34,283 bases of DNA from an uncultured Gammaproteobacteria bacterium (GCA_964349535.1 CAYGGQ010000001.1:1-34283); one strand, 5' to 3'; positions 3,219 through 26,792 are shown, counted from the stretch's first letter. Notes: generated by a model not told the origin, from the sequence alone. Numbers and translations: made by a program.

Positions 3219-3293
3219 GCGGGTATCATATAATGGTTATTATGAATGCTTCCCAAGCATTACAAGCGGGTTCGATTCCCGCTACCCGCTCCA
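3219..3293 (+). tRNA. tRNA-Gly (anticodon CCC).
   Basis: Hand-folded cloverleaf. Acceptor stem GCGGGTA/TACCCGC; anticodon stem AATGC/GCATT with loop TTCCCAA; T arm GCGGG-TTCGATT-CCCGC; discriminator T; encoded CCA. Confidence 0.9.
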
Positions 3294-3858: not shown

Positions 3859-5922
3859 TCACATCTCATCTTTCAAGGAATAAACCCTGGCGTAAAAGCG
3901 TAACCATGCGAGGGCTTTTTTGTATAGCTGACCCACCCGCGAACGACTTATCTCGAACTCGGCGGCAATTTTTACTAGCTGGTACTCCTCTCGATAGGGA
4001 GGAAGAGCAAAAGACATCTTCAAGACCTTTTCCTCGCGAGGTGGCAGCTTGTCCAACACAAGAAGAATAGCATTTGTCAGGCGCAATCGTGTCACGACCT
4101 CGTCTGGCCATGGTTCTGGCTCTCGTCCCTCGGGACCGGCCAGGGCACGCCAACCGAGTTCAAAGTCATGTTCTGGCACTCCTCGCACCCACCCGTGACG
4201 CCGATGTGGCACGACGAGACACTCCTCCATGTATTGCGCGTCTTCGTAACAACTTTGCTCCGCTTGACCGAAGGCATCACGCACGAGCAGATAGGTCCCT
4301 GCTCGTTCCGGAAACAGACGCGACATCAAGCGCATGTACTCTGATCCACCACGCATGTCGCAACCGAGAAACCGAAGCAGTTGCTCCCCGCGACCCGTGA
4401 AAAGCGGGTGGTTAAAGTACAACCATCGGAACAAGCGCACGCTCCCTGATCCCTGATTGACCACAAAGTCCGGACTTGAATTCATCACGGCCCGGATCTG
4501 ATGGATATCCTTAGGGTTCAGCTTTGGCTTTTCAAGCGTTCCTGCGAGCTTGATCCGGCTCACGAGAGTGACTTTTTCGATGGGCGTAGCTGTCGCACGC
4601 CGCATACGCTCTCGTGCTTTCGCATCTGGAGCAGTAGGCTGCTGTTTTTTTGGGCCCATCAGCTCGCCTGCCTCATAGACATCCGACGACCACTCCAAGA
4701 ATTGCGTAGGAAGGATCGGCTGTCGCGCCAAATTCTTTGGAATCAGAATGTGAATATGCGCGATCTGCCCTTCCCACTTCGTGAGCACCCGAAAGAACTT
4801 CTGTTCGGCGCGCACGACAGAGGGGGTTGGCGACAAATCGATCAACAGCTTGCAGCGAGGAGAGTTCCACCCCTCGATCAGAACACCGACATTGATAATC
4901 GTGTCGATCTCCCCAAGCGCATACTTCCGCAAGATCTCTTTGCGATCCTCTTTTTTCGTCTCTGCCACGATCAGTTCTGGCATCGGCGTCCCATGCGGAC
5001 GTGTATCCCGAAGATAACGGAAAAGTCCGTAGGCCTGCTTACGGGACGCGCAACAAATGAGCGTCGTGAGATCACGATTTTCCTTTGCGTAACGTATCTC
5101 TCGCGTCTGTTCAAAGAAGGGTGCCGCGCTCATCACTTCGCCGAGCTGGTCCTCTTGCAGCTTTCCAGCTACGACTTCGACGTGAGACGCATCCTCGTCA
5201 ACCTCGTACATCCACCAACGCAGAGGCGCCAGCAAACCAAGCTCAACCGCTTCCCCCACCGTAATTTCATGGATCAAGGCGGGAAAAAAGCGCGCTAAAT
5301 CCTGCACGTCATTGAACTTTGGGGTTGCTGTCAAGGCGACGCGAATTGCCAACGGATCAAAGCACTCATCAATCACGCGCTGGCGCTCTTTTGTCATGGA
5401 GCGGTGACCTTCATCAGCAAAGATCAGAGCAGAACAACGAATCTGCCAGGGGATCTCTACGCCATCTCGAAGATGGTTCTGCAGAATGTTGTAGGTTGTG
5501 ACGTTGATGCCACCAATGACCAGATCTTTTTCGTCGCCGTAATAAATCCCGATCGGCACGTCTGGCAACTGCCTCCGAAAATCACTCACGGCCTGTTCGG
5601 CCAGAATTTTCTTCGGAACCATAAAGGTCGTGACAAGGCCAGCGCCGATGGCGATTTGACCCGCGACCCCCGTCTTCCCCGTTCGGGGCGGGAGAATGAT
5701 CCGTCCCTTTGGGAGAGCGCTATCACGATCGTCATGTCGCATGGCAACATCAGCAATATAACGAGCAAAATCGGCGTACACACCTACCTGCTCTGGTTGA
5801 AGAGTAAACGTGGATCCCTCCACAGCACCAGCGTCCTCCACGGTACCTTCGATCCTCCTCGCAGCTGCGAGGAGCCGTTCTGCCATTGTTTCGGTCTGAC
5901 TGATCGCCTCGAGCAGAGCCAT
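3859..5922 (-). CDS. SF2 DExH-box helicase fused to a C-terminal sigma-70 region-4-like HTH domain.
   Basis: 687-aa ORF with RBS GAGGT. Helicase motif I is PPRTGKTG, motif II is FADEGH, motif III is LTATP, and a RecA2-like block reads VGVLIEGWNSPRCKLLID...RAEQKFFRVL. The C-terminus LDKLPPREEKVLKMSFAL...YQLVKIAAEFEISRSRVGQLYKKALAWLR matches the sigma70_r4 pattern (L..RER.V...RF....T..EIA...G.S..RV.Q....AL..LR). Confidence 0.75.
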   Translation of the reverse strand: MALLEAISQTETMAERLLAAARRIEGTVEDAGAVEGSTFTLQPEQVGVYADFARYIADVAMRHDDRDSALPKGRIILPPRTGKTGVAGQIAIGAGLVTTFMVPKKILAEQAVSDFRRQLPDVPIGIYYGDEKDLVIGGINVTTYNILQNHLRDGVEIPWQIRCSALIFADEGHRSMTKERQRVIDECFDPLAIRVALTATPKFNDVQDLARFFPALIHEITVGEAVELGLLAPLRWWMYEVDEDASHVEVVAGKLQEDQLGEVMSAAPFFEQTREIRYAKENRDLTTLICCASRKQAYGLFRYLRDTRPHGTPMPELIVAETKKEDRKEILRKYALGEIDTIINVGVLIEGWNSPRCKLLIDLSPTPSVVRAEQKFFRVLTKWEGQIAHIHILIPKNLARQPILPTQFLEWSSDVYEAGELMGPKKQQPTAPDAKARERMRRATATPIEKVTLVSRIKLAGTLEKPKLNPKDIHQIRAVMNSSPDFVVNQGSGSVRLFRWLYFNHPLFTGRGEQLLRFLGCDMRGGSEYMRLMSRLFPERAGTYLLVRDAFGQAEQSCYEDAQYMEECLVVPHRRHGWVRGVPEHDFELGWRALAGPEGREPEPWPDEVVTRLRLTNAILLVLDKLPPREEKVLKMSFALPPYREEYQLVKIAAEFEISRSRVGQLYKKALAWLRFYARVYSLKDEM

Positions 5923-6078: not shown

Positions 6079-6154
6079 GCCAGTTTAGCTCAGTTGGTAG
6101 AGCAATGCTTTCGTAAAGCAGAGGTCCCGGGTTCGAATCCCGGAACTGGCTCCA
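6079..6154 (+). tRNA. tRNA-Thr (anticodon CGT).
   Basis: Acceptor stem GCCAGTT/AACTGGC; D arm GCTC-AGTTGGTA-GAGC; anticodon loop TTCGTAA; T arm CCGGG-TTCGAAT-CCCGG; encoded CCA. There is one A.G mismatch at the top of the anticodon stem. Confidence 0.88.
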
Positions 6155-20468: not shown

Positions 20469-22181
20469 ATGTTTGTCCAAGTCGTGCCTGTCGTACGAAC
20501 GCCGGCAGGTGTTGATGTGTTTGATTACCGGCTTCCTGCCGGTTTTGAGGCGCGCGTAGGCGATCTTATTCGAGTCCCATTTCGCAAGCAGATCACCCCA
20601 GCACTCGTCGTCGCGCTCCTAAAAACAAGCCCCGTGGCGCACAAAGCGCTCGATGCCATCGACTCTTATGCGGGACTTTCTTTTCCTAGCTCTCTCGTCG
20701 AACTCTTGCACTGGACCGCGGCACGTACCTTTACCTCCAAACCAACCGTTCTTGCCGCATGGATGCGCCAGCTGCCAAAACGACCAACATCGATCGCCTT
20801 TGAAGCGCCCAAACCTCGATTGACCTCCGGCTCTCTGATCGCTCATTGGAACATGAGCGCGTCTGCGGCCCTCGTCGAACGAGCACGCGTAGCTCTAAAA
20901 GAAAATCAACGTGTCCTACTTATCACCCCTTGGAAAAATCGCGTCTTGCGTTATCAACAGCAACTCCCTGGCGCGCAAGGACTGCACAGCGACATGGCAG
21001 ACGGTCAAGCGTTCCAAGCATGGCAAGCATTTGTGACCGGACAAACACGTTGCCTCATCACAACCCGTCTCGGCGCGTGGCTCTCCCCTGTGTCAGACGT
21101 TGTGTTGATTGATGAACCAGAAAACGACGATCATAAACAAGATGATCTCGCTCCTCGCTATGATGCGCGCCTTATGTCTGCTTGGTGCTCTCGTTTTGCT
21201 GGTACGCAAGTCGAAGGATTCGGTCTGACCCCGCCGCTTCATACACGAACGATCGCGCCTACGATCACAACTCCTCTGCATGTCATCATCCGAGAACGTC
21301 AGGGTCGATCGTCGATCCCGATGGTTCAGGCAGACACGCTTCTCCTTTTGAAAGACCATGACGGTCCACGTGTGATCATTCATCCTATTCGTGGGGTTGC
21401 CGCGAGTCTCGTCTGTCGCGATTGTGGATGGCGCGCGATCTGCGCCAACTGCGGTTTTGGTTTGCGCGCGGAAAAGACGAACGCTGTCTGTCGTCAATGC
21501 GGAAAGATGGCCGACCTCCCACAAGACTGTGGCTCTTGTGGGGGCGTAGACCTTGGAAAAGCGATGCCCGGCATCGAACAACTCAAACAAGCGTGGCAGC
21601 GCCATGAGCAAGCGGAGCGCGTCGAATGGCGCGATCAAAGCAACGAATCGATCGATCCGCCATTTCCCACGGGCGCCCTTGTTGTGATCACCGATGGTTC
21701 ACTTTTAGGCGGTGGTTTTGAGGATGTGCGTCGCACCGAACGCCAATGTCAAACCTTCCGTCGTCTCGCAAATCGCGTCGCCGAATGTCATGGGACCCTT
21801 ATCATCCAGTCAGATGAGGCTCTTGCCTCATCTTGGCACTCTTGGCTCAAAGCAGAAGGCGTCACGGCGTGGCAGGAGCGGGAGCGTCATGATCGAGAGC
21901 TGTTTCAATACCCGCCCGCAAAACGTCTTGTTAAAATCCTTGTTGATGGCACAGAACAAGAAGCAATCCATTGGATGGAAAAAGCAAAACCAACGATCGA
22001 CCCAAATGCCCAGTGGCGTGGGCCCTTTCACATCCCCTTTCGTGCCAAATCACGTCGTGAACGTCACGTGTTACATTTGATCTTTCTCACGGACACGACC
22101 GAACAACAACTCATCACTCAATTGACCCCGCTTGCCAGATCCGCCATCATAGACCTTGACCCGATCGCATTTTTCCATTAA
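20469..22181 (+). CDS. priA: Primosomal protein N' (PriA)-like, with a degenerate ATPase motif I.
   Basis: PriA-type N-terminus MFVQVVPVVRTPAGVDVFDYRLP...GDLIRVPF. Cys-rich zinc module CRDCGWRAICANCG...CRQCG...CGSCGG. VLIDEPENDDHKQ aligns to the PriA DEEHD.SYKQ motif. No GxGKT is found where it is expected (VLLITPWKNRV). Confidence 0.7.
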   Translation: MFVQVVPVVRTPAGVDVFDYRLPAGFEARVGDLIRVPFRKQITPALVVALLKTSPVAHKALDAIDSYAGLSFPSSLVELLHWTAARTFTSKPTVLAAWMRQLPKRPTSIAFEAPKPRLTSGSLIAHWNMSASAALVERARVALKENQRVLLITPWKNRVLRYQQQLPGAQGLHSDMADGQAFQAWQAFVTGQTRCLITTRLGAWLSPVSDVVLIDEPENDDHKQDDLAPRYDARLMSAWCSRFAGTQVEGFGLTPPLHTRTIAPTITTPLHVIIRERQGRSSIPMVQADTLLLLKDHDGPRVIIHPIRGVAASLVCRDCGWRAICANCGFGLRAEKTNAVCRQCGKMADLPQDCGSCGGVDLGKAMPGIEQLKQAWQRHEQAERVEWRDQSNESIDPPFPTGALVVITDGSLLGGGFEDVRRTERQCQTFRRLANRVAECHGTLIIQSDEALASSWHSWLKAEGVTAWQERERHDRELFQYPPAKRLVKILVDGTEQEAIHWMEKAKPTIDPNAQWRGPFHIPFRAKSRRERHVLHLIFLTDTTEQQLITQLTPLARSAIIDLDPIAFFH

Positions 22182-22184
22182 CCT
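22156..22184 (+). promoter_or_regulatory. Putative promoter for def, lying inside the priA 3' end.
   Basis: TTGACC (22156-22161), a 17-nt spacer, then TAACCT (22179-22184). The ATG of def lies 13 nt downstream and has no Shine-Dalgarno sequence. Confidence 0.35.
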
Positions 22185-22197
22185 GACTTATCATCCT

Positions 22198-22683
22198 ATG
22201 GAAATGGAACCATTCCAAATTCTGACAGAACCCACAAAGTCCTTACGCGAACGATCGCGCGTATTAGACGTGGAAGAGGTCACGACACCCGAATTTCAGC
22301 AGTATCTCGATCGCCTCATTCATACGATGTTCACCTCTGATGGGGTTGGGATCGCTTCGCCACAGGTTGGACGTAACATACGAGCGATTGTCGTCTTCAT
22401 GCCAAAGGGTGCCGAATGTTTTATCAATCCAGAAATTACCAAGACATCAACAAGCATGACGGACAGCGAGGAGGGTTGTCTAAGCGTCCCCGGCAAGTTT
22501 GGCATTGTCCCGCGTCATAAAAAAGTCACGGTCCGTGCCCTCAACCGCCACGGTCGTCGTGTAGAATTTGACGCTAAAAACTTCCCCGCCATCGTTTTTC
22601 AACACGAAATCGATCATCTCGATGGCATCCTGTTCATCGATAAAGCGACCAGCATGCTGTCAACGGTCAAACGACATATCTAA
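22198..22683 (+). CDS. def: Peptide deformylase.
   Basis: Motifs GVGIASPQVG, EGCLSVPG and QHEIDHLDG. Start taken at ATG 22198, after the priA stop. Confidence 0.92.
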   Translation: MEMEPFQILTEPTKSLRERSRVLDVEEVTTPEFQQYLDRLIHTMFTSDGVGIASPQVGRNIRAIVVFMPKGAECFINPEITKTSTSMTDSEEGCLSVPGKFGIVPRHKKVTVRALNRHGRRVEFDAKNFPAIVFQHEIDHLDGILFIDKATSMLSTVKRHI

Positions 22684-22701
22684 TCTAGCAATTTTCTTCA
22701 A

Positions 22702-23688
22702 TCATCTCTCGTCTTGAGAAGGATTTTGCGTTTTTGTTTGCAGCAATCGTTCCAACTCATAGGCATTCGCATGCCAGCAAAGACCTGAATAGGATGACAG
22801 ATTTTCTGGCGTTGCTCGTTTGAGCATCCGTCTTATCGTCTTCGATCGTAAAACGGTCGCGTGAGGTAAAAGTACGTATCCAAGAAAATCAACCCCTTGC
22901 TTCCACGTCTGTACCTTTACTTTGTTCGGATGCAATTCCATCTTCAATCTATTTTTAAGAAACACATCTACACGTTCTGCCAGATCAAATGCTTCAGATC
23001 GTGCCAACGTCAGAATCACAAAATCATCACAATAACGAACATAATGAATGGCTCGTAACTCATGCTTTACATAGCGATCCAACTCATGAAGATAGACATT
23101 GGCAAAAATCTGGCTTGTGAGATTACCAAGCGGAATGCCACGGCCGGGAAGGACGGAAAAACTCTCGATAATCCCCCGAAGCAAACGAACAACCTTCTCG
23201 TCTTTTACCCTCCGTCCCAACAAGGAAAGCAAAATCTCATGATCTACCGACGCAAAAAACTTCCTGACGTCGCACTTCAACGCATAGACCGTCCTCGTAT
23301 GATTCACGCTCGCCCGTCGGAGAAAAACTCCTAAGCGAGCTACAGCCACATGAGTGCCTTTTTCGAGCCGACATGAATAGCTGTCATAAATGAACCGCGA
23401 CTCAAAAAACGTCTCAATAACATTGACGATCGCTTGATGCACGACCCGATCCCTCACGGTCGCCTTATGTATACTGCGCTGCTTCGGATCAAAAATCGTA
23501 AATGGTTGGTAGGGGCCATGTCGGTATGTTTCTTCAAGGAGACTGTCCCATAAAGAAAAGATATTATCTTCAAGATGATATTCAAACTCCATCACATCCC
23601 CCTTCGATCGCTTGCCTTTGCAAAATCTGTGCCAAGCCTCAAATAAGTTTTCAAGAGAAACGATGCGGTAGAATAGGTCATTATTCAT
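22702..23688 (-). CDS. DGR-type reverse transcriptase.
   Basis: 328 aa. RT motifs are KQRSIHKATVRDRVVHQAIV, LKCDVRKFFASVDHEIL, the DGR-diagnostic IPLGNLTSQIFANVYLHELD ([ILV]GxxxSQ), and YVRYCDDFVIL (YxDD). RBS GGAGAGGT. Confidence 0.92.
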   Translation of the reverse strand: MNNDLFYRIVSLENLFEAWHRFCKGKRSKGDVMEFEYHLEDNIFSLWDSLLEETYRHGPYQPFTIFDPKQRSIHKATVRDRVVHQAIVNVIETFFESRFIYDSYSCRLEKGTHVAVARLGVFLRRASVNHTRTVYALKCDVRKFFASVDHEILLSLLGRRVKDEKVVRLLRGIIESFSVLPGRGIPLGNLTSQIFANVYLHELDRYVKHELRAIHYVRYCDDFVILTLARSEAFDLAERVDVFLKNRLKMELHPNKVKVQTWKQGVDFLGYVLLPHATVLRSKTIRRMLKRATPENLSSYSGLCWHANAYELERLLQTKTQNPSQDER

Positions 23689-23716
23689 TTTTACCTCTCC
23701 GAGAGGAGATTCCTCT

Positions 23717-24101
23717 ATGTTACCCCCCCCGCCACAATTTCAATCAAATCTCTCACAATCCAAGCGACATACCCATCATTCAGGCCATCTATGGTCTCTA
23801 CGCGTTCTGGAATGAAATCTTGCTGAAGTTCCCAAAAACCCAACGACATCTCCTTGGCCAAACCTGTGCCGAATACCTGCTTGATGTACTTGAAAAAACG
23901 CTGGCATCAGCACAAACGACACAGGTCACGGAAAAAATCCCCTACTTACAACACGCGAGTACAAAACTCGATACGCTCAAACTACTCACGCGCCTTACGA
24001 AGGACTGTAAGTGCATTTCAAACGCACAGTATTTGCAAATGGAGTCCAAGCTACAGGAAATAGGCAGGATGCTCGGCGGATGGATCAAGTCGCTTGGATA
24101 A
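23717..24101 (+). CDS. avd: Avd (accessory variability determinant; four-helix-bundle, 23S rRNA IVS protein family). The start requires a 1-nt correction in a C8 tract.
   Basis: In-frame part: PIIQAIYGLYAFWNEILLKFPKTQRHLLGQTCAEYLLDVLEKTL...CISNAQYLQMESKLQEIGRMLGGWIKSLG, the typical Avd C-terminus. The only SD-preceded ATG (GAGAGGAG-N8-ATG at 23717) is in the neighbouring frame. Removing one C from C8 (23723-23730) joins the two frames. The span is 385 nt, that is 3n+1. Confidence 0.75.
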
Positions 24102-24109
24102 AAAGCAAC

Positions 24110-24128
24110 CCCACCTGTGAAAGGTGGG
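24110..24128 (-). terminator. Hairpin between the avd stop and the TR 3' end. It looks like a terminator only on the minus (TR) strand.
   Basis: Minus strand reads CCCACCT-ttcac-AGGTGGG followed by GTTGCTTTTTA. On the plus strand the tail is ATCGTGATGGGG, with no T-run. Confidence 0.45.
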
Positions 24129-24142
24129 ATCGTGATGGGGAG

Positions 24143-24277
24143 TCCCGCAAGCGGGGCACCGAGTAGTTCGAGTTGTCATTGCTGCGGTCGTTGGCGTTGA
24201 CGTTCACCTGACGATTGTCACGGTTGAAGTTCACGATCACGACGTTCTGCCACGCCTCGTCGTCGTTCTCGGGGACG
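24143..24277 (-). repeat. DGR template repeat (TR).
   Basis: 135 bp aligning without gaps to 24687-24821 (offset 544). There are 119 identities. All 16 mismatches are T on the plus strand, which is A on the minus strand of this copy. In the target reading frame it carries 9 AAC and 2 AAT codons. Confidence 0.92.
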
Positions 24278-24614
24278 AGCTATATTACGTTTTCTCCTTC
24301 CATGACACCGAGCACAGGCGCACCCATGCCCTGTATTTTATGCGGGGTGCAACTACGTCAGTTTGATGACATAGCCCATCCCAAAAGAAAACGCGGAGTA
24401 CCCATCATTCGCGCCGCATCACCCTTCGCTCCTGCTGGAGCTACGGGTGACACCCCGAAGCTTTAGCGAAGGGGTGCGCTCTCGAACTCCGTAAAGATCG
24501 AGACTCTGACGGCATATGCGAGTAATAAGAGATTTCGGCGACCGGCATCCGTAAACGCCGATTCATGAGCCTACTTTCCATGCATAAGTATACCAGTTTT
24601 TGATAAAAAAATTA

Positions 24615-24660
24615 GGCGCTCAGGGAACCAAGGTCAGAAGACCAAGGTTCCCCAAGCGCC
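24615..24660 (-). terminator. Long interrupted hairpin 26 nt downstream of the VR. It could be the target-gene terminator and/or a DGR homing-associated hairpin.
   Basis: Minus strand reads GGCGCT-t-GGGAACC-tt-GGTC-ttct-GACC-tt-GGTTCCC-tg-AGCGCC followed by TAATTTTTTT. Confidence 0.6.
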
Positions 24661-24682
24661 AAGTGTTCAAGTTACAAGTGCC

Positions 24683-25540
24683 TTACTCCCGCAAGCGGGG
24701 CACCGAGTAGTACGAGTTGCCATCGCTGCGGCCGTGGGCGCTGACGCGCACCTGACGATTGTCACGGTCGAAGAGCACGATCACGACGCGCTGCCACGCC
24801 TCGTCGCCGTCCGCGGGGACGTTGACCTCGTAGCCAGCGGCGAACAAGCCGGGGAGCTTGTCGTAGTCGATGGCCTGGATCATATCCTTGAACAGCCATA
24901 CGATGACGAGCAGCTCGTCGGCGAGCGACTTGGAATCGCGCACCGCCGTGATGCTCTCGCGCTTCCGGTTGGTGTCGAGGTCGGCCACGATCCATTCGAC
25001 GACCGCGTGGTGCGTGTTGTTGCCGGAGAGCAGCCGCAGGCGCTCCACGGGCGTGCCCTCGTACTCGACCTTGCCCGAGTGGAGCAGGTTCCAGCGCCAG
25101 AAGCGACCTTCGCCGAAGACGTGCTGGAGGCGGGCATAGTGCGCTTCGAAGGTCTTGGCCACGCCCTCGTCCCCTTCGCCGAAGCGGATGCGGAACGAAC
25201 GGTAGGCGGACTTGCCTTTCGGCCACGCGGGAGCGGAGGAGGCGAGACGGACGAAGTCCTCCTCGGTCATTCCCCACTTTTCCTCGTCGTTCGCACGACG
25301 GAGAGCGGTGAGCTGTGCCTCGACGGTCATCTCATACGGGTTCTTCTCGGCGCGGGCGAGCTGCTCGTTGATGAACTGGATGAGCAAGCTCGCGTTCTCA
25401 CCCTCCTTGCCGCCGCGCATCCAATCGGTGTGTGCGGTCGTGCCGCCCGCCTTTTCGATGACACGGAGGGTGGAGTGAAGCAGGTCGTGCTCGATCTTCG
25501 TGATGGGGTTGGCCATTGGCGTCACCCGTTCCTTTCGCAT
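24683..25540 (-). CDS. DGR target (variable) protein with the VR at its C-terminus. No recognisable N-terminal domain.
   Basis: 285-aa ORF. An alternative start at ATG 25516 (MANPITK) has AAGGAA upstream. The last 45 codons are the VR. The TR AAC codons are in frame with this ORF, which fixes the coding strand. Confidence 0.85.
   Translation of the reverse strand: MRKERVTPMANPITKIEHDLLHSTLRVIEKAGGTTAHTDWMRGGKEGENASLLIQFINEQLARAEKNPYEMTVEAQLTALRRANDEEKWGMTEEDFVRLASSAPAWPKGKSAYRSFRIRFGEGDEGVAKTFEAHYARLQHVFGEGRFWRWNLLHSGKVEYEGTPVERLRLLSGNNTHHAVVEWIVADLDTNRKRESITAVRDSKSLADELLVIVWLFKDMIQAIDYDKLPGLFAAGYEVNVPADGDEAWQRVVIVLFDRDNRQVRVSAHGRSDGNSYYSVPRLRE
24687..24821 (-). repeat. DGR variable repeat (VR).
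   Basis: Counterpart of the TR. It encodes VPADGDEAWQRVVIVLFDRDNRQVRVSAHGRSDGNSYYSVPRLR, against the TR-encoded VPENDDEAWQNVVIVNFNRDNRQVNVNANDRSNDNSNYSVPRLR. Confidence 0.92.
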
Positions 25541-25676
25541 GCCGCAGACTGTCCAGACTCAGGATCATTCCCTAGTACGTGGAGTTGTCGTTTGTTGAAA
25601 GCGGCCTGTTAAAGCCCACAGAATGAGCTACAAAACGCCACTTTCAACAATAGGTTGCTATTTCAAAGAACATACA

Positions 25677-25705
25677 TTTATAGCATGTTTTCTGGGAAAA
25701 GTCAA
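25677..25705 (-). promoter_or_regulatory. Strong sigma-70-like promoter for the DGR target gene.
   Basis: Minus strand reads TTGACT (25705-25700), a 17-nt spacer, then TATAAA (25682-25677). It lies about 130 nt upstream of ATG 25540. Confidence 0.5.
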
Positions 25706-25853
25706 GCGCAGTACCTGTGCTTTTGCCTTATTTAGCCGGATTTATTGTAATAAACCAACTTTATCCAACAGAACCTATCTTACCACCCCCTCTTCCGCTG
25801 TCATGCTGTCTTATATATGTAATTCGTGCTAAATTTTCTGACGCTTACTGCTT

Positions 25854-26792
25854 ATGTTCCCGTCCCCCCTCCGCCTCCTCTTCCTTGGCACCTCCTCCTT
25901 CGCCGTCCCTGCGTTACGTCATTTAGCGAATGACAAACGCTTTCTCGTCACAACCGTCATCACGCAGCCTGACCGTCCCGTTGGTCGTCATGCCACGCTC
26001 ACACCCCCTCCCGTAAAAACGACCGCCCAAGAACTCAAGATCCCCGTCTTACAGTTTGAGCATGTAAAAAAAGATGACGCGTGGGATATTCTGAAAGAGC
26101 TCCACGCGGATGTCGGCGTTGTCGCGAGCTTTGGCCAGATCATCCCCCAACGACTGCTCGATCTGCCACGTCTTGGTATGGTCAACATTCATACCTCGCT
26201 CTTACCGCTCTATCGCGGAGCGTCCCCCATTGCCGAAGCGATAAAAAATGGCGATACAGAAACGGGTGTCACGATCATGAAAATGGATGCTCTGTTGGAT
26301 CATGGTCCTATTCTTCACGTTGCCCACGAAACGATCCTTCCAACCGACACCACCGCGAGCCTAGAAGAGCGCTTAGCAAAGCTTGGCGCAGAGATCCTTC
26401 CTGATACGCTCATCGCTTACGCAGAAGGTCAACTCACTCCGCAAGAGCAGGATCATACCAAGGCGACGTCGGTGAAACTCTTATCCCGCGAAGACGGTCA
26501 ACTGGATTGGCAAAAAACTGCTGAAGAGCTGGAACGTCTTGTACGCGCTTATCATCCTTGGCCTGGAACATTTACCATGCTCGACGGGAAACGACTGAAA
26601 ATTTTTAAAACACTCGTTGGCCCAACCTCCTCCCGCTCCCCCGGTAGTCGCTTTATGACTGATCAACTCCCCTGTATCACCGCGGGACAAAACACCTCGT
26701 TATGTCTTCTTGAAGTACAGCCAGAAGGCAAGGCTATGATGACAGGCGAGGCTTTTTTACGTGGAAACATGCACTGGGAAACAGTGCATTGA
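25854..26792 (+). CDS. fmt: Methionyl-tRNA formyltransferase.
   Basis: Contains LLFLGTSSFAVPALRHL, TQPDRPVGR, NIHTSLLPLYRGASPI and the C-terminal domain. Confidence 0.9.
   Translation: MFPSPLRLLFLGTSSFAVPALRHLANDKRFLVTTVITQPDRPVGRHATLTPPPVKTTAQELKIPVLQFEHVKKDDAWDILKELHADVGVVASFGQIIPQRLLDLPRLGMVNIHTSLLPLYRGASPIAEAIKNGDTETGVTIMKMDALLDHGPILHVAHETILPTDTTASLEERLAKLGAEILPDTLIAYAEGQLTPQEQDHTKATSVKLLSREDGQLDWQKTAEELERLVRAYHPWPGTFTMLDGKRLKIFKTLVGPTSSRSPGSRFMTDQLPCITAGQNTSLCLLEVQPEGKAMMTGEAFLRGNMHWETVH

Follow-up and report, generated by a model that had tools for sequence, protein, structure and literature searches.

How does a diversity-generating retroelement (DGR) prime and bound its cDNA synthesis when its accessory gene avd is inverted and no spacer lies between its template repeat (TR) and its reverse transcriptase (RT) gene? 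The question is raised by a 3.2-kb cassette in a 34,283-nt stretch of DNA from an uncultured Gammaproteobacteria bacterium (GCA_964349535.1, CAYGGQ010000001.1:1-34283). Hereafter, "the window" means this whole stretch, and positions are counted from its first letter. A sequence-only reading of the window had proposed a DGR with all four parts within 3 kb, namely: a 328-amino acid (aa) RT with a DGR-type [ILV]GxxxSQ motif, an Avd-type open reading frame (ORF), a non-coding 135-bp TR, and a matching 135-bp variable repeat (VR) that forms the last 45 codons of a 285-aa ORF. All four are present. Read 5′ to 3′ on the minus strand, the locus consists of the 285-aa ORF (the target gene), a 409-nt gap without a credible ORF, the TR, the Avd-like ORF on the opposite strand and the RT ORF (Table 1). 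We add to the earlier description that avd lies on the plus strand, whereas RT, TR and target gene are all on the minus strand. Comparison with related loci further yields a well-supported addition: a structured TR RNA family whose leader very probably clamps the TR from both sides. Three weaker leads are less certain: that priming is permuted, that a repeat gates the avd/RT junction, and that the VR sits on a scaffold not recognisable as a C-type lectin.

The Cassette Is Almost Certainly a DGR

The RT ORF contains GIPLGNLTSQ and YCDD, and matches Pfam RVT_1 (1.4e-22) and PHROG 1423 (6.6e-107). Its closest solved relative is bRT, the RT of the Bordetella phage DGR (8ub7; 161 bits, E 2.3e-46), whose IPIGSLTSQ aligns to the IPLGNLTSQ of the window. 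Group II intron and retron RTs score at most 87 bits (about 1e-23) against the window RT; group II intron RTs carry QGxxxSP where DGR RTs have [ILV]GxxxSQ. Judged by similarity scores, the grouping of this RT with DGR RTs is supported. The Avd-type ORF matches Pfam bAvd (56 bits, cut-off 40), the NCBIfam equivalog DivGenRetAVD (80.8 bits, cut-off 80) and PHROG 3206, 'Avd protein of DGR' (8e-20).

The TR and VR form the sole direct repeat of at least 30 nt within 21.5-27 kb (135 nt, 88% identity), and no further match to the TR was found across the whole 34-kb window. On the minus strand, all 16 mismatches between the two copies fall at TR adenines (hypergeometric p 1.8e-11), there are zero non-A differences over the 135 nt, and the homology breaks off abruptly on both sides. 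The 35 TR adenines occupy codon position 1 in 13 cases, position 2 in 22 and position 3 in none. Thirteen codons are altered between TR and VR, of which 9 encode Asn (8 AAC, 1 AAT). A total of 23 codons are mutable, a stop codon can be reached from none of them, and approximately 1.5e20 peptides are within reach. The last 25 nt common to TR and VR are G+C-rich and invariant, and the copies diverge right after GGGA. Members of the target family differ from each other at exactly the TR-adenine codons, which are the x positions of the C-terminal consensus NVPExGxExWQxVVxVxFxRxxRxVxVxAxxRSxxxSxYSVPxLRE.

In order to place the cassette among its relatives, we scanned one genome per species for related RTs. 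At least 548 were found, and the best 80, which are 46-83% identical to the window RT, were examined; according to their record titles, they derive almost entirely from metagenome-assembled genomes (MAGs) of Patescibacteria, with a few carrying other labels. Together with 5 loci reached via target homologues and the window itself, 86 loci were compared. In 68 of the 86, a TR/VR pair was found in which at least 80% of the mismatches are A-specific, and the order is always VR, a spacer of 243-644 nt, TR, inverted avd and RT. avd is inverted and head-to-head with the RT gene in every one of the 80 RT-related loci that includes upstream sequence. Some relatives carry two VR-bearing target genes per one TR (L023, with VRs at 2856-2987 and 3875-4004, L030 and L070).

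Because the RT resembles DGR RTs, Avd scores above the family cut-offs, TR and VR differ at adenines only and the same geometry recurs in 68 of the 86 loci, the cassette is almost certainly a DGR. Apart from the avd start it is intact, and it was probably active recently.

The TR Lies in a Predicted RNA Unit of Its Own

Alignment of 23 VR-TR spacers reveals a common order of elements: just past the target stop codon come the CTTG(G) repeats with a covarying hairpin, then a T-run and an element resembling a -10 box, and lastly a strongly conserved block of about 240 nt that extends up to the TR and is broken by variable hairpin insertions. Of 21 close loci, 17 have TGnTAnnnT and 20 have TAnnnT, located 5-7 nt ahead of the conserved leader 5′ end, GGAAAGUAGG. 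On the other side of the TR, a hairpin is followed by a U-run that overlaps the avd stop codon; this hairpin is kept in relatives with a different sequence. We consider it to be the predicted intrinsic terminator of the TR RNA and possibly also the counterpart of the Avd-binding stem-loop known from Bordetella (see below). The comparison thus shows the TR within a predicted RNA unit of about 480 nt, with an extended -10 element upstream and a hairpin and U-run downstream.

The leader of this RNA is structured. RNAalifold applied to 21 leaders gives 48 pairs, 37 of which show compensatory changes. A covariance model of the 3′ domain of the leader (135 positions, 25 pairs), used to search 97 sources (864 kb) at E≤0.01, matches 45 of them, all on the RT-sense strand, including 23 loci outside the model-building set and two viral contigs. 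Wherever a TR was mapped, the match ends at the TR start or a few nucleotides from it. In the model-based alignment, compensatory changes are seen in 23 of the 25 pairs and the share of paired cells is 95.6%, compared to 69.5% in shuffled alignments and 33-63% with slid partners. The G-U pairs of the leader are compatible with this strand only. No Rfam family matches at E≤1 in 22000-26500, and a scan of the whole window at gathering thresholds gave two tRNAs only. Thus, the leader is not a described family.

The window also carries a 69-nt leader insertion (24411-24479, minus strand) that forms hairpins of its own, including an 11-bp stem (CACCCCUUCGCU / AGCGAAGGGUG). It is absent from most relatives, while in L016 and L026 a shorter hairpin takes its position; this site appears to be a tolerated expansion site of the TR RNA.

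Two Leader Segments Very Probably Clamp the TR

Within the leader, two adjacent segments, X and Y, are complementary to the two flanks of the TR. X is complementary to X′, which starts 4 nt past the end of the TR/VR homology. The invariant ACUCC that follows X can pair with the last TR nucleotides (GGAGU or GGACU) and joins X to Y, and Y, directly after it, pairs with Y′ shortly upstream of the TR. Paired in this way, X and Y would hold the TR as a closed loop, and covariation makes this arrangement highly probable.

To examine the clamps, we aligned three anchored blocks from 21 loci without gaps. In X:X′, both partners change in 6 of 7 pairs, and paired cells make up 89%; in Y:Y′, these values are 9 of 12 and 92.5%. 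For both helices together, 91% of cells are paired, compared to 43-60% with slid partners, and none of 500 shuffles reaches the observed value. Independently of any alignment, X binds its own TR flank better than foreign ones (-14.1 vs. -10.3 kcal/mol; permutation p about 1e-4, n=38). In distant loci, the X/X′ sequences are unrelated to these, e.g. GGAUAGAG/CUCUAUCC and AAAAAGGAGGAAGUCC/GGCACUUCCUUCUUUUUU. Finally, the minimum free energy fold of the 482-nt window RNA alone gives both clamps as well as the other helices (z -3.6).

The Clamped RNA Resembles a Rearranged Bordetella DGR RNA

The closest biochemical reference is the Bordetella DGR RNA. In that RNA, nucleotides 53-56 of the spacer (Sp) pair with TR 118-121, and Sp A56 primes via its 2′-OH. 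Two nucleotides further on, Sp 59-70 pairs with a segment just upstream of the TR, termed 'cPRT Stop'. Next comes a short stem capped by a UNCG loop, then adenosines that are left unpaired, the single-stranded 'thumb ring' and finally a long stem that binds the RT, while an Avd-binding stem-loop is located just 3′ of the TR (Handa et al., bioRxiv 10.1101/2023.10.23.563531).

The RNA of the window presents a comparable series: a strand pairing with the TR 3′ end, an adjacent strand pairing about 10 nt upstream of the TR, a stem-loop (24382-24344), an A-rich single strand, a long stem and a UNCG loop, with a stem-loop directly 3′ of the TR. What differs is the location. In the window, the Sp-like module lies 5′ of the TR, which is itself followed only by the 7-nt pairing segment and the terminator, and then by antisense avd. 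No match to the Bordetella-type Sp RNA (Rfam RT-10) was found 3′ of the TR, at E≤1 in 22000-26500. Since the order of elements is the same but the connectivity is not, the module being joined to the 5′ side of the TR, we propose a circularly permuted DGR RNA. We lean towards this interpretation, by analogy with Bordetella, without holding it firmly.

If it is correct, the duplex of X and ACUCC with the TR 3′ end would serve as the template:primer duplex, and an internal leader nucleotide would prime the cDNA. RT-Avd would copy the TR with misincorporation opposite A, and the Y:Y′ duplex would act as the stop element that ends synthesis at the TR 5′ edge. The hairpin, A-rich single strand and long stem after Y would correspond to the stem-loop, the adenosines and thumb ring, and the RT-binding stem of Bordetella, respectively. 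The cDNA would then take the place of the VR; the 25-nt invariant tail, and perhaps also the post-VR CTTG repeats and hairpin, would guide it. The pairings themselves are seen in the comparison; what they do (as primer duplex, stop or protein contacts) and which nucleotide primes is what we infer from the Bordetella analogy. As a whole, the explanation of the locus as a Patescibacteria DGR with a clamped TR RNA and permuted priming is likely to be right.

Handa et al. predicted Bordetella-like elements for some DGRs of the candidate phyla radiation (CPR) from 40 nt upstream and 100 nt downstream of the TR (bioRxiv 10.1101/2023.10.23.563531). An arrangement with the scaffold on the 5′ side would be invisible to a search of this design.

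Beyond the RNA, the cassette shares with the Bordetella BPP-1 DGR (mtd, avd, TR, brt) an RT family with an IGxxxSQ-type motif, an Avd protein, AAC codons in a TR of roughly 135 nt, the placement of the VR at the target ORF's 3′ end, a G+C-rich 3′ tail without variation and a post-VR hairpin. It differs in that avd is inverted and located between TR and RT, whereas Bordetella avd is located between VR and TR; in the TR RNA's own predicted promoter; in its chromosomal rather than phage-borne location; in a target that is not detectably a C-type lectin tail fibre protein; and in the CTTG repeats that follow the VR. Retron msr/msd systems are similar in that an RT acts on an adjacent structured non-coding RNA, with internal 2′-OH priming, a feature that would apply here via the Bordetella DGR. 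Unlike them, the cassette has a TR/VR pair with adenine mutagenesis and an Avd, and its RT has no retron-type match above cut-off (retron St85 model, 55.7 bits, cut-off 235).

A Simple Repeat Lies at the avd/RT Junction

The avd-side and RT start codons are arranged head-to-head and separated by 28 nt. In the assembled sequence, no in-frame ATG, GTG or TTG is found near the 5′ end of the Avd frame. The ATG at 23717, preceded by a GGAG Shine-Dalgarno sequence, is out of frame with Avd at the C8 run found here, and would be in frame at C7 or C10. The sole in-frame start is an ATG 221 nt upstream, within the RT gene, and it is not kept in relatives. A 199-aa Avd ORF (23502-24101), antisense to the RT start, was rejected since most relatives have a stop 0-30 nt upstream of the C-run. 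Downstream of the run, the Avd core is conserved and free of stops. In the sub-lineage of the window, an upstream GAG GAG ATT stays in phase with the Avd frame.

Besides the C8 run, the 34-kb window has no C/G run of 7 or more. Runs of C7-C15 occupy the avd/RT junction in 49 of 75 related loci (mode C10), and other related loci carry (GA)n, (CA)n or (CAAT)6 at this site. In full-length loci, 32 of 38 C/G runs of 8 or more fall inside the 110-nt junction zone. Only about a quarter to a third of the loci have avd in frame; in the majority of loci, the Avd frame has a stop just upstream of the run and no canonical start. The nearest relatives, from metagenomes, are out of frame as well (L006 and L169 at C9; L166-168 at C8). 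G10-G11 runs also occur where the TR 3′ flank meets the 3′ end of avd (RT-sense strand) in three distant relatives (L036 at ~4620, L044 at ~4632 and L076 at ~4623), as a second homopolymer site in the lineage.

This distribution suggests phase variation or slippage at the avd/RT junction. Transcriptional or ribosomal slippage across the run could be the normal route to Avd, the avd start could be non-canonical, or the run length could reflect a homopolymer assembly error. In addition, the C/G-run may act as an RT promoter spacer in a subset of loci. Near the RT start of the window, TTGAAA is followed after 15 nt by TAACAT, a spacer that would be 17 nt at G10, and TAnnnT occurs after the run in 16 of 53 loci (background 5%). 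The G-run as a general RT promoter spacer was rejected, as in approximately 20 loci it ends 0-10 nt from the RT ATG.

The junction resembles the simple sequence repeat contingency loci of Neisseria, Haemophilus and Campylobacter (poly-G/C, (CAAT)n) in having a long repeat at an ORF 5′ end or promoter spacer, whose length varies among relatives and shifts the frame, and in the substitution of other repeat types at the same site. Unlike in those loci, the repeat is located at the junction of two DGR genes, and it is known here from sequence comparison. In a literature search on DGRs and repeat-mediated phase variation, the top-ranked papers contained no mention of a DGR.

The Target Protein Has No Recognisable Domain

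No Pfam, NCBIfam or PHROG family matches the target protein. The target has 162 word-indexed homologues; of those with a source name, nearly all are annotated 'hypothetical protein' and belong to Patescibacteria or Candidatus Uhrbacteria, while one MAG carries the label Ignavibacteriae. When 1.84 billion representatives were searched with a profile, 299 family members emerged. An alignment of the family shows a conserved core at residues 65-240. In 10 longer or more distant members, no credible Pfam domain was found, the only match being to BH3, below cut-off.

An AlphaFold2 model built from 66 sequences (predicted local distance difference test score (pLDDT) 94.3; predicted template-modelling score (pTM) 0.86) places the variable residues alternately along two predicted β-strands (251-258 and 263-270) and in the loop that follows. 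Searched with Foldseek against the PDB, the model gives a best E of 0.64 and TM scores of at most 0.13 among the 50 matches listed, and against BFVD a best E of 0.2. The family profile matches nothing among PDB sequences at E≤10. A single-sequence PDB search had returned HIV gp41 (E about 7e-5); this was not reproduced by the family profile and was rejected as coiled-coil noise. According to the accessible text of Roux et al. (PMC8144416), annotated VR regions are systematically C-type lectin folds. In the model, the order of secondary structure over residues 180-285 (a β-element, helices and four β-strands) would be compatible with a very divergent C-type-lectin-like arrangement.

The target gene also stands out in composition. 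Mean G+C in the lineage is 60% for the target, 48% for the flanks and 44% for avd and RT, and in 55 of 58 loci the target is richer in G+C than its flanks, whatever the G+C of the host. In the window, the target reaches 64%, compared to 51% for the window as a whole and 45-46% for RT and avd. The coding strand of the target is not depleted of adenine. A 292-aa ORF (24734-25612, plus strand) runs antisense to this G+C-rich gene and is probably not a gene.

Target homologues are also found in other settings. In Candidatus Uhrbacteria RIFOXYC2_FULL_47_19 (L001-L003; 2188-6843), a homologue with 73% identity is located downstream of Fic and AEP-TOTE genes. The local TR matches another gene, of 211 aa, rather than the homologue; the RT is called as fragments of 130 or 248 aa, and the avd/RT junction carries (CAAT)6. 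Two further homologues (L004 and L005) have no DGR within 6 kb.

CTTG Repeats Follow the VR but Not the TR

Directly after the target stop codon, the window has CTTG(G) repeats and a hairpin whose arms hold the last two of them (Table 1). In the lineage, CT[TCA]G occurs 3.82 times per 70 nt after the VR, compared to 0.69 after the TR and 0.75 in the background, a five-fold enrichment, and 40 of 68 VRs are followed by at least 4 copies. Because they are present after the VR and not after the TR, the repeats are a candidate target-recognition element. For Bordetella, a hairpin proximal to the initiation of mutagenic homology (IMH) site has been described (Guo et al., PMC3240598, according to the summary in the accessible part of PMC5758913); the post-VR CTTG region of the window would be analogous to it.

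Alternative Explanations

Several points weigh against the reading of the locus as an active DGR with a clamped, permuted TR RNA. The ACUCC:GGAGU helix never varies and is thus uninformative as to covariation, and half of the loci, the window among them, have a C:C mismatch in it. Unconstrained duplex energies do not differ significantly from those of shuffled leaders (median z -0.9), so the case for the clamps rests on covariation rather than on energy. The alignment behind the 23 of 25 compensatory pairs had itself been fitted to the covariance model, and the hairpin 3′ of the TR is absent from a few related loci. Without an in-frame canonical avd start, the element could currently be switched off or defective. 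Lastly, DGR activity and the priming site are read from sequence, and given the predictions of Handa et al. for CPR DGRs, downstream elements within antisense avd are possible. The last point leads to an alternative that we consider unlikely, in which the leader is a regulatory or stabilising element of the TR transcript and priming is carried out by elements 3′ of the TR, either in antisense avd read-through or at the RNA 3′ end. It draws on those same predictions and on the proposal of 3′-OH priming from nicked template RNA for Bordetella (Naorem et al., PMC5703328, in the part accessible to us). Against it, both TR flanks pair covaryingly with adjacent leader segments, which is the primer/stop geometry of Bordetella; the leader ends at or within a few nucleotides of the TR start wherever this was mapped; and the TR is followed by a terminator and then by protein-coding avd, with no non-coding conservation seen beyond the hairpin.

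A slightly less probable alternative is a decayed or permanently silenced DGR, which makes no Avd owing to the frameshift at C8 and whose TR/VR differences record past activity only. That ATG 23717 is out of frame, that no other canonical start is near, and that the closest relatives are out of frame as well would all fit such a state. However, the RT is full length with its catalytic motifs, the Avd core past the run is conserved and free of stops, and neutral decay would soon erase the absence of non-A differences over 135 nt. Moreover, the recurrence of the run in the lineage, its random-looking frames (approximately one third in frame) and the other simple repeats at the site point to a maintained switch or slippage site. 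Hardly any weight can be given to a third possibility, that the RT is from another retroelement (a retron, group II intron or defence RT) and the repeat an ordinary duplication or assembly artefact. It could appeal to NCBIfam, where all hits of the RT are below threshold and to non-DGR models, the top one being a group II intron RT/maturase (155 bits, far under its cut-off of 300). On the other side, bRT is by far the best solved relative and Avd is adjacent, no group II intron RNA or other Rfam family matches at the cassette, the mismatches are confined to adenines, and the same repeat geometry is present in 68 independent loci. We retain the DGR with a clamped TR RNA. The joint proposal of a permuted, autonomous TR RNA gene of approximately 480 nt from a non-Rfam family, repeat-gated avd/RT activity and a diversified β-hairpin face on a fold that is not a recognisable C-type lectin is tentative, and we would sooner expect one of its parts to fail than all of them to hold.

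Relation to Described DGRs and Genomic Context

The sequence-only reading had called the cassette non-paradigm. This is true in comparison to Bordetella, but the main departure, namely an inverted avd in the order TR-avd-RT, is the published B3 architecture and not specific to the window. In the accessible text of Wu et al. 2018 (PMC5758913), B3 accounts for 90% of CPR DGRs, and in that of Roux et al. 2021 (PMC8144416), a cellular, Patescibacteria-restricted DGR clade 2 is defined. The window cassette belongs to this already described CPR B3 / clade 2 lineage and layout. It resembles these CPR and DPANN elements in host lineage, in its cellular rather than viral location, and in how avd and TR are ordered and oriented, which is unlike the core set. 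Its target without a recognisable domain also has parallels in the 'UVR' classes of unknown fold, as far as the accessible parts of both surveys describe them, and at their level of detail there is no difference. In agreement with a cellular lineage, the closest relative among viral contigs is only 49% identical, versus 83% for one in a Patescibacteria MAG. The searchable text of PMC5758913 and PMC8144416 contains no mention of a TR promoter or spacer RNA, an avd homopolymer or post-VR repeats. In the literature accessible to us, we found no description of the TR RNA unit, the avd/RT C-run, the post-VR CTTG repeats or the target model without a PDB match.

The cassette is chromosomal, downstream of priA, and is inserted between def (peptide deformylase) and fmt (methionyl-tRNA formyltransferase), two genes that are commonly adjacent. 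At none of the 80 related loci was def, fmt or priA found beside the cassette, which implies that the cassette has moved between genomic sites. The sole Rfam or ARAGORN matches in the window are tRNA-Gly(CCC) (3219-3293, plus strand) and tRNA-Thr(CGT) (6079-6154, plus strand).

Table 1. Features of the cassette and its neighbours in the window; RNA elements are predictions.
Feature	Position	Strand	Remarks
priA	20469-22181		neighbour; cassette lies downstream of it
def	22156-22683		flank of cassette
DGR RT gene	22702..23688	-	328 aa; IPLGNLTSQ and YCDD; Pfam RVT_1, bRT 8ub7, PHROG 1423
avd accessory gene	23717..24101	+	Avd frame from C-run to stop 24099-24101; bAvd, DivGenRetAVD, PHROG 3206
C8 homopolymer (G8 in RT sense)	23723..23730	+	3 nt past candidate avd ATG 23717; 34 nt upstream of RT ATG
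Hairpin CGAUCCCACCU-UUCAC-AGGUGGGGUUG and U-run	24098..24132	-	directly 3′ of TR; terminator scan (24132-24106)
X′, CCCAUCA	24133..24139	-	TR 3′ flank; pairs with X
TR	24143..24277	-	non-coding; 35 adenines in 23 codon-equivalents; 25-nt invariant G+C-rich IMH*-like 3′ tail
Structured 5′ leader of TR RNA	24278..24579	-	RNAalifold, covariance model
Leader segment Y′, AGGAGAAAACGU	24298-24287	-	9 nt before TR
Leader stem H5	24326-24315	-	encloses UGCG (UNCG) hairpin
Leader A-rich single strand, GCAUAAAAUACA	24343-24332	-	conserved
Leader hairpin H4	24382-24344	-	
Leader segment Y, GCGUUUUCUUUU	24394-24383	-	
Leader ACUCC	24399-24395	-	invariant; preceded by U at 24400
Leader segment X, UGAUGGG	24407-24401	-	
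Leader hairpin insertion	24479-24411	-	window-specific
Leader hairpin H2	24503-24480	-	
Leader hairpin H1	24579-24528	-	multi-part
Extended -10 promoter element, TGGTATACT	24587..24595	-	ends 7 nt before conserved leader 5′ end
VR-proximal cis region	24603..24682	-	six CTTG(G) motifs, conserved hairpin, T-run
T-run	24614-24603	-	follows post-VR hairpin
Hairpin GGAACC-UU-GGUC / GACC-UU-GGUUCC	24653-24623	-	conserved, covarying; arms hold last two CTTG motifs
CTTG(G) motifs, 5′ ends	24678, 24671, 24663, 24656, 24646, 24632	-	spacing 7-14 nt; directly after target stop codon
Target (variable protein) gene	24683..25540	-	285 aa, 64% G+C; uncharacterised family, mainly Patescibacteria, many Candidatus Uhrbacteria
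VR	24687..24821	-	codons 241-285 of target; 16 A-to-N differences from TR, 13 codons
fmt	25854-26792		flank of cassette

Significance

Taken alone, the cassette is one more among thousands of catalogued DGRs, with an architecture typical of CPR bacteria. The comparison of its relatives offers a testable answer to the question of how inverted-avd DGRs without a TR-RT spacer prime and bound cDNA synthesis. If the permuted scaffold is true, strand order and helix geometry would be essential in DGR RNA, while connectivity would be free. The VR-specific CTTG repeats bear on target-site recognition, and the unmatched target fold bears on the view that every DGR variable region has a C-type lectin fold. 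DGR engineering could benefit from a TR RNA gene that is compact and self-contained, and the simple repeat at the avd/RT junction suggests that these bacteria may use a population-level on/off switch for a costly mutator.

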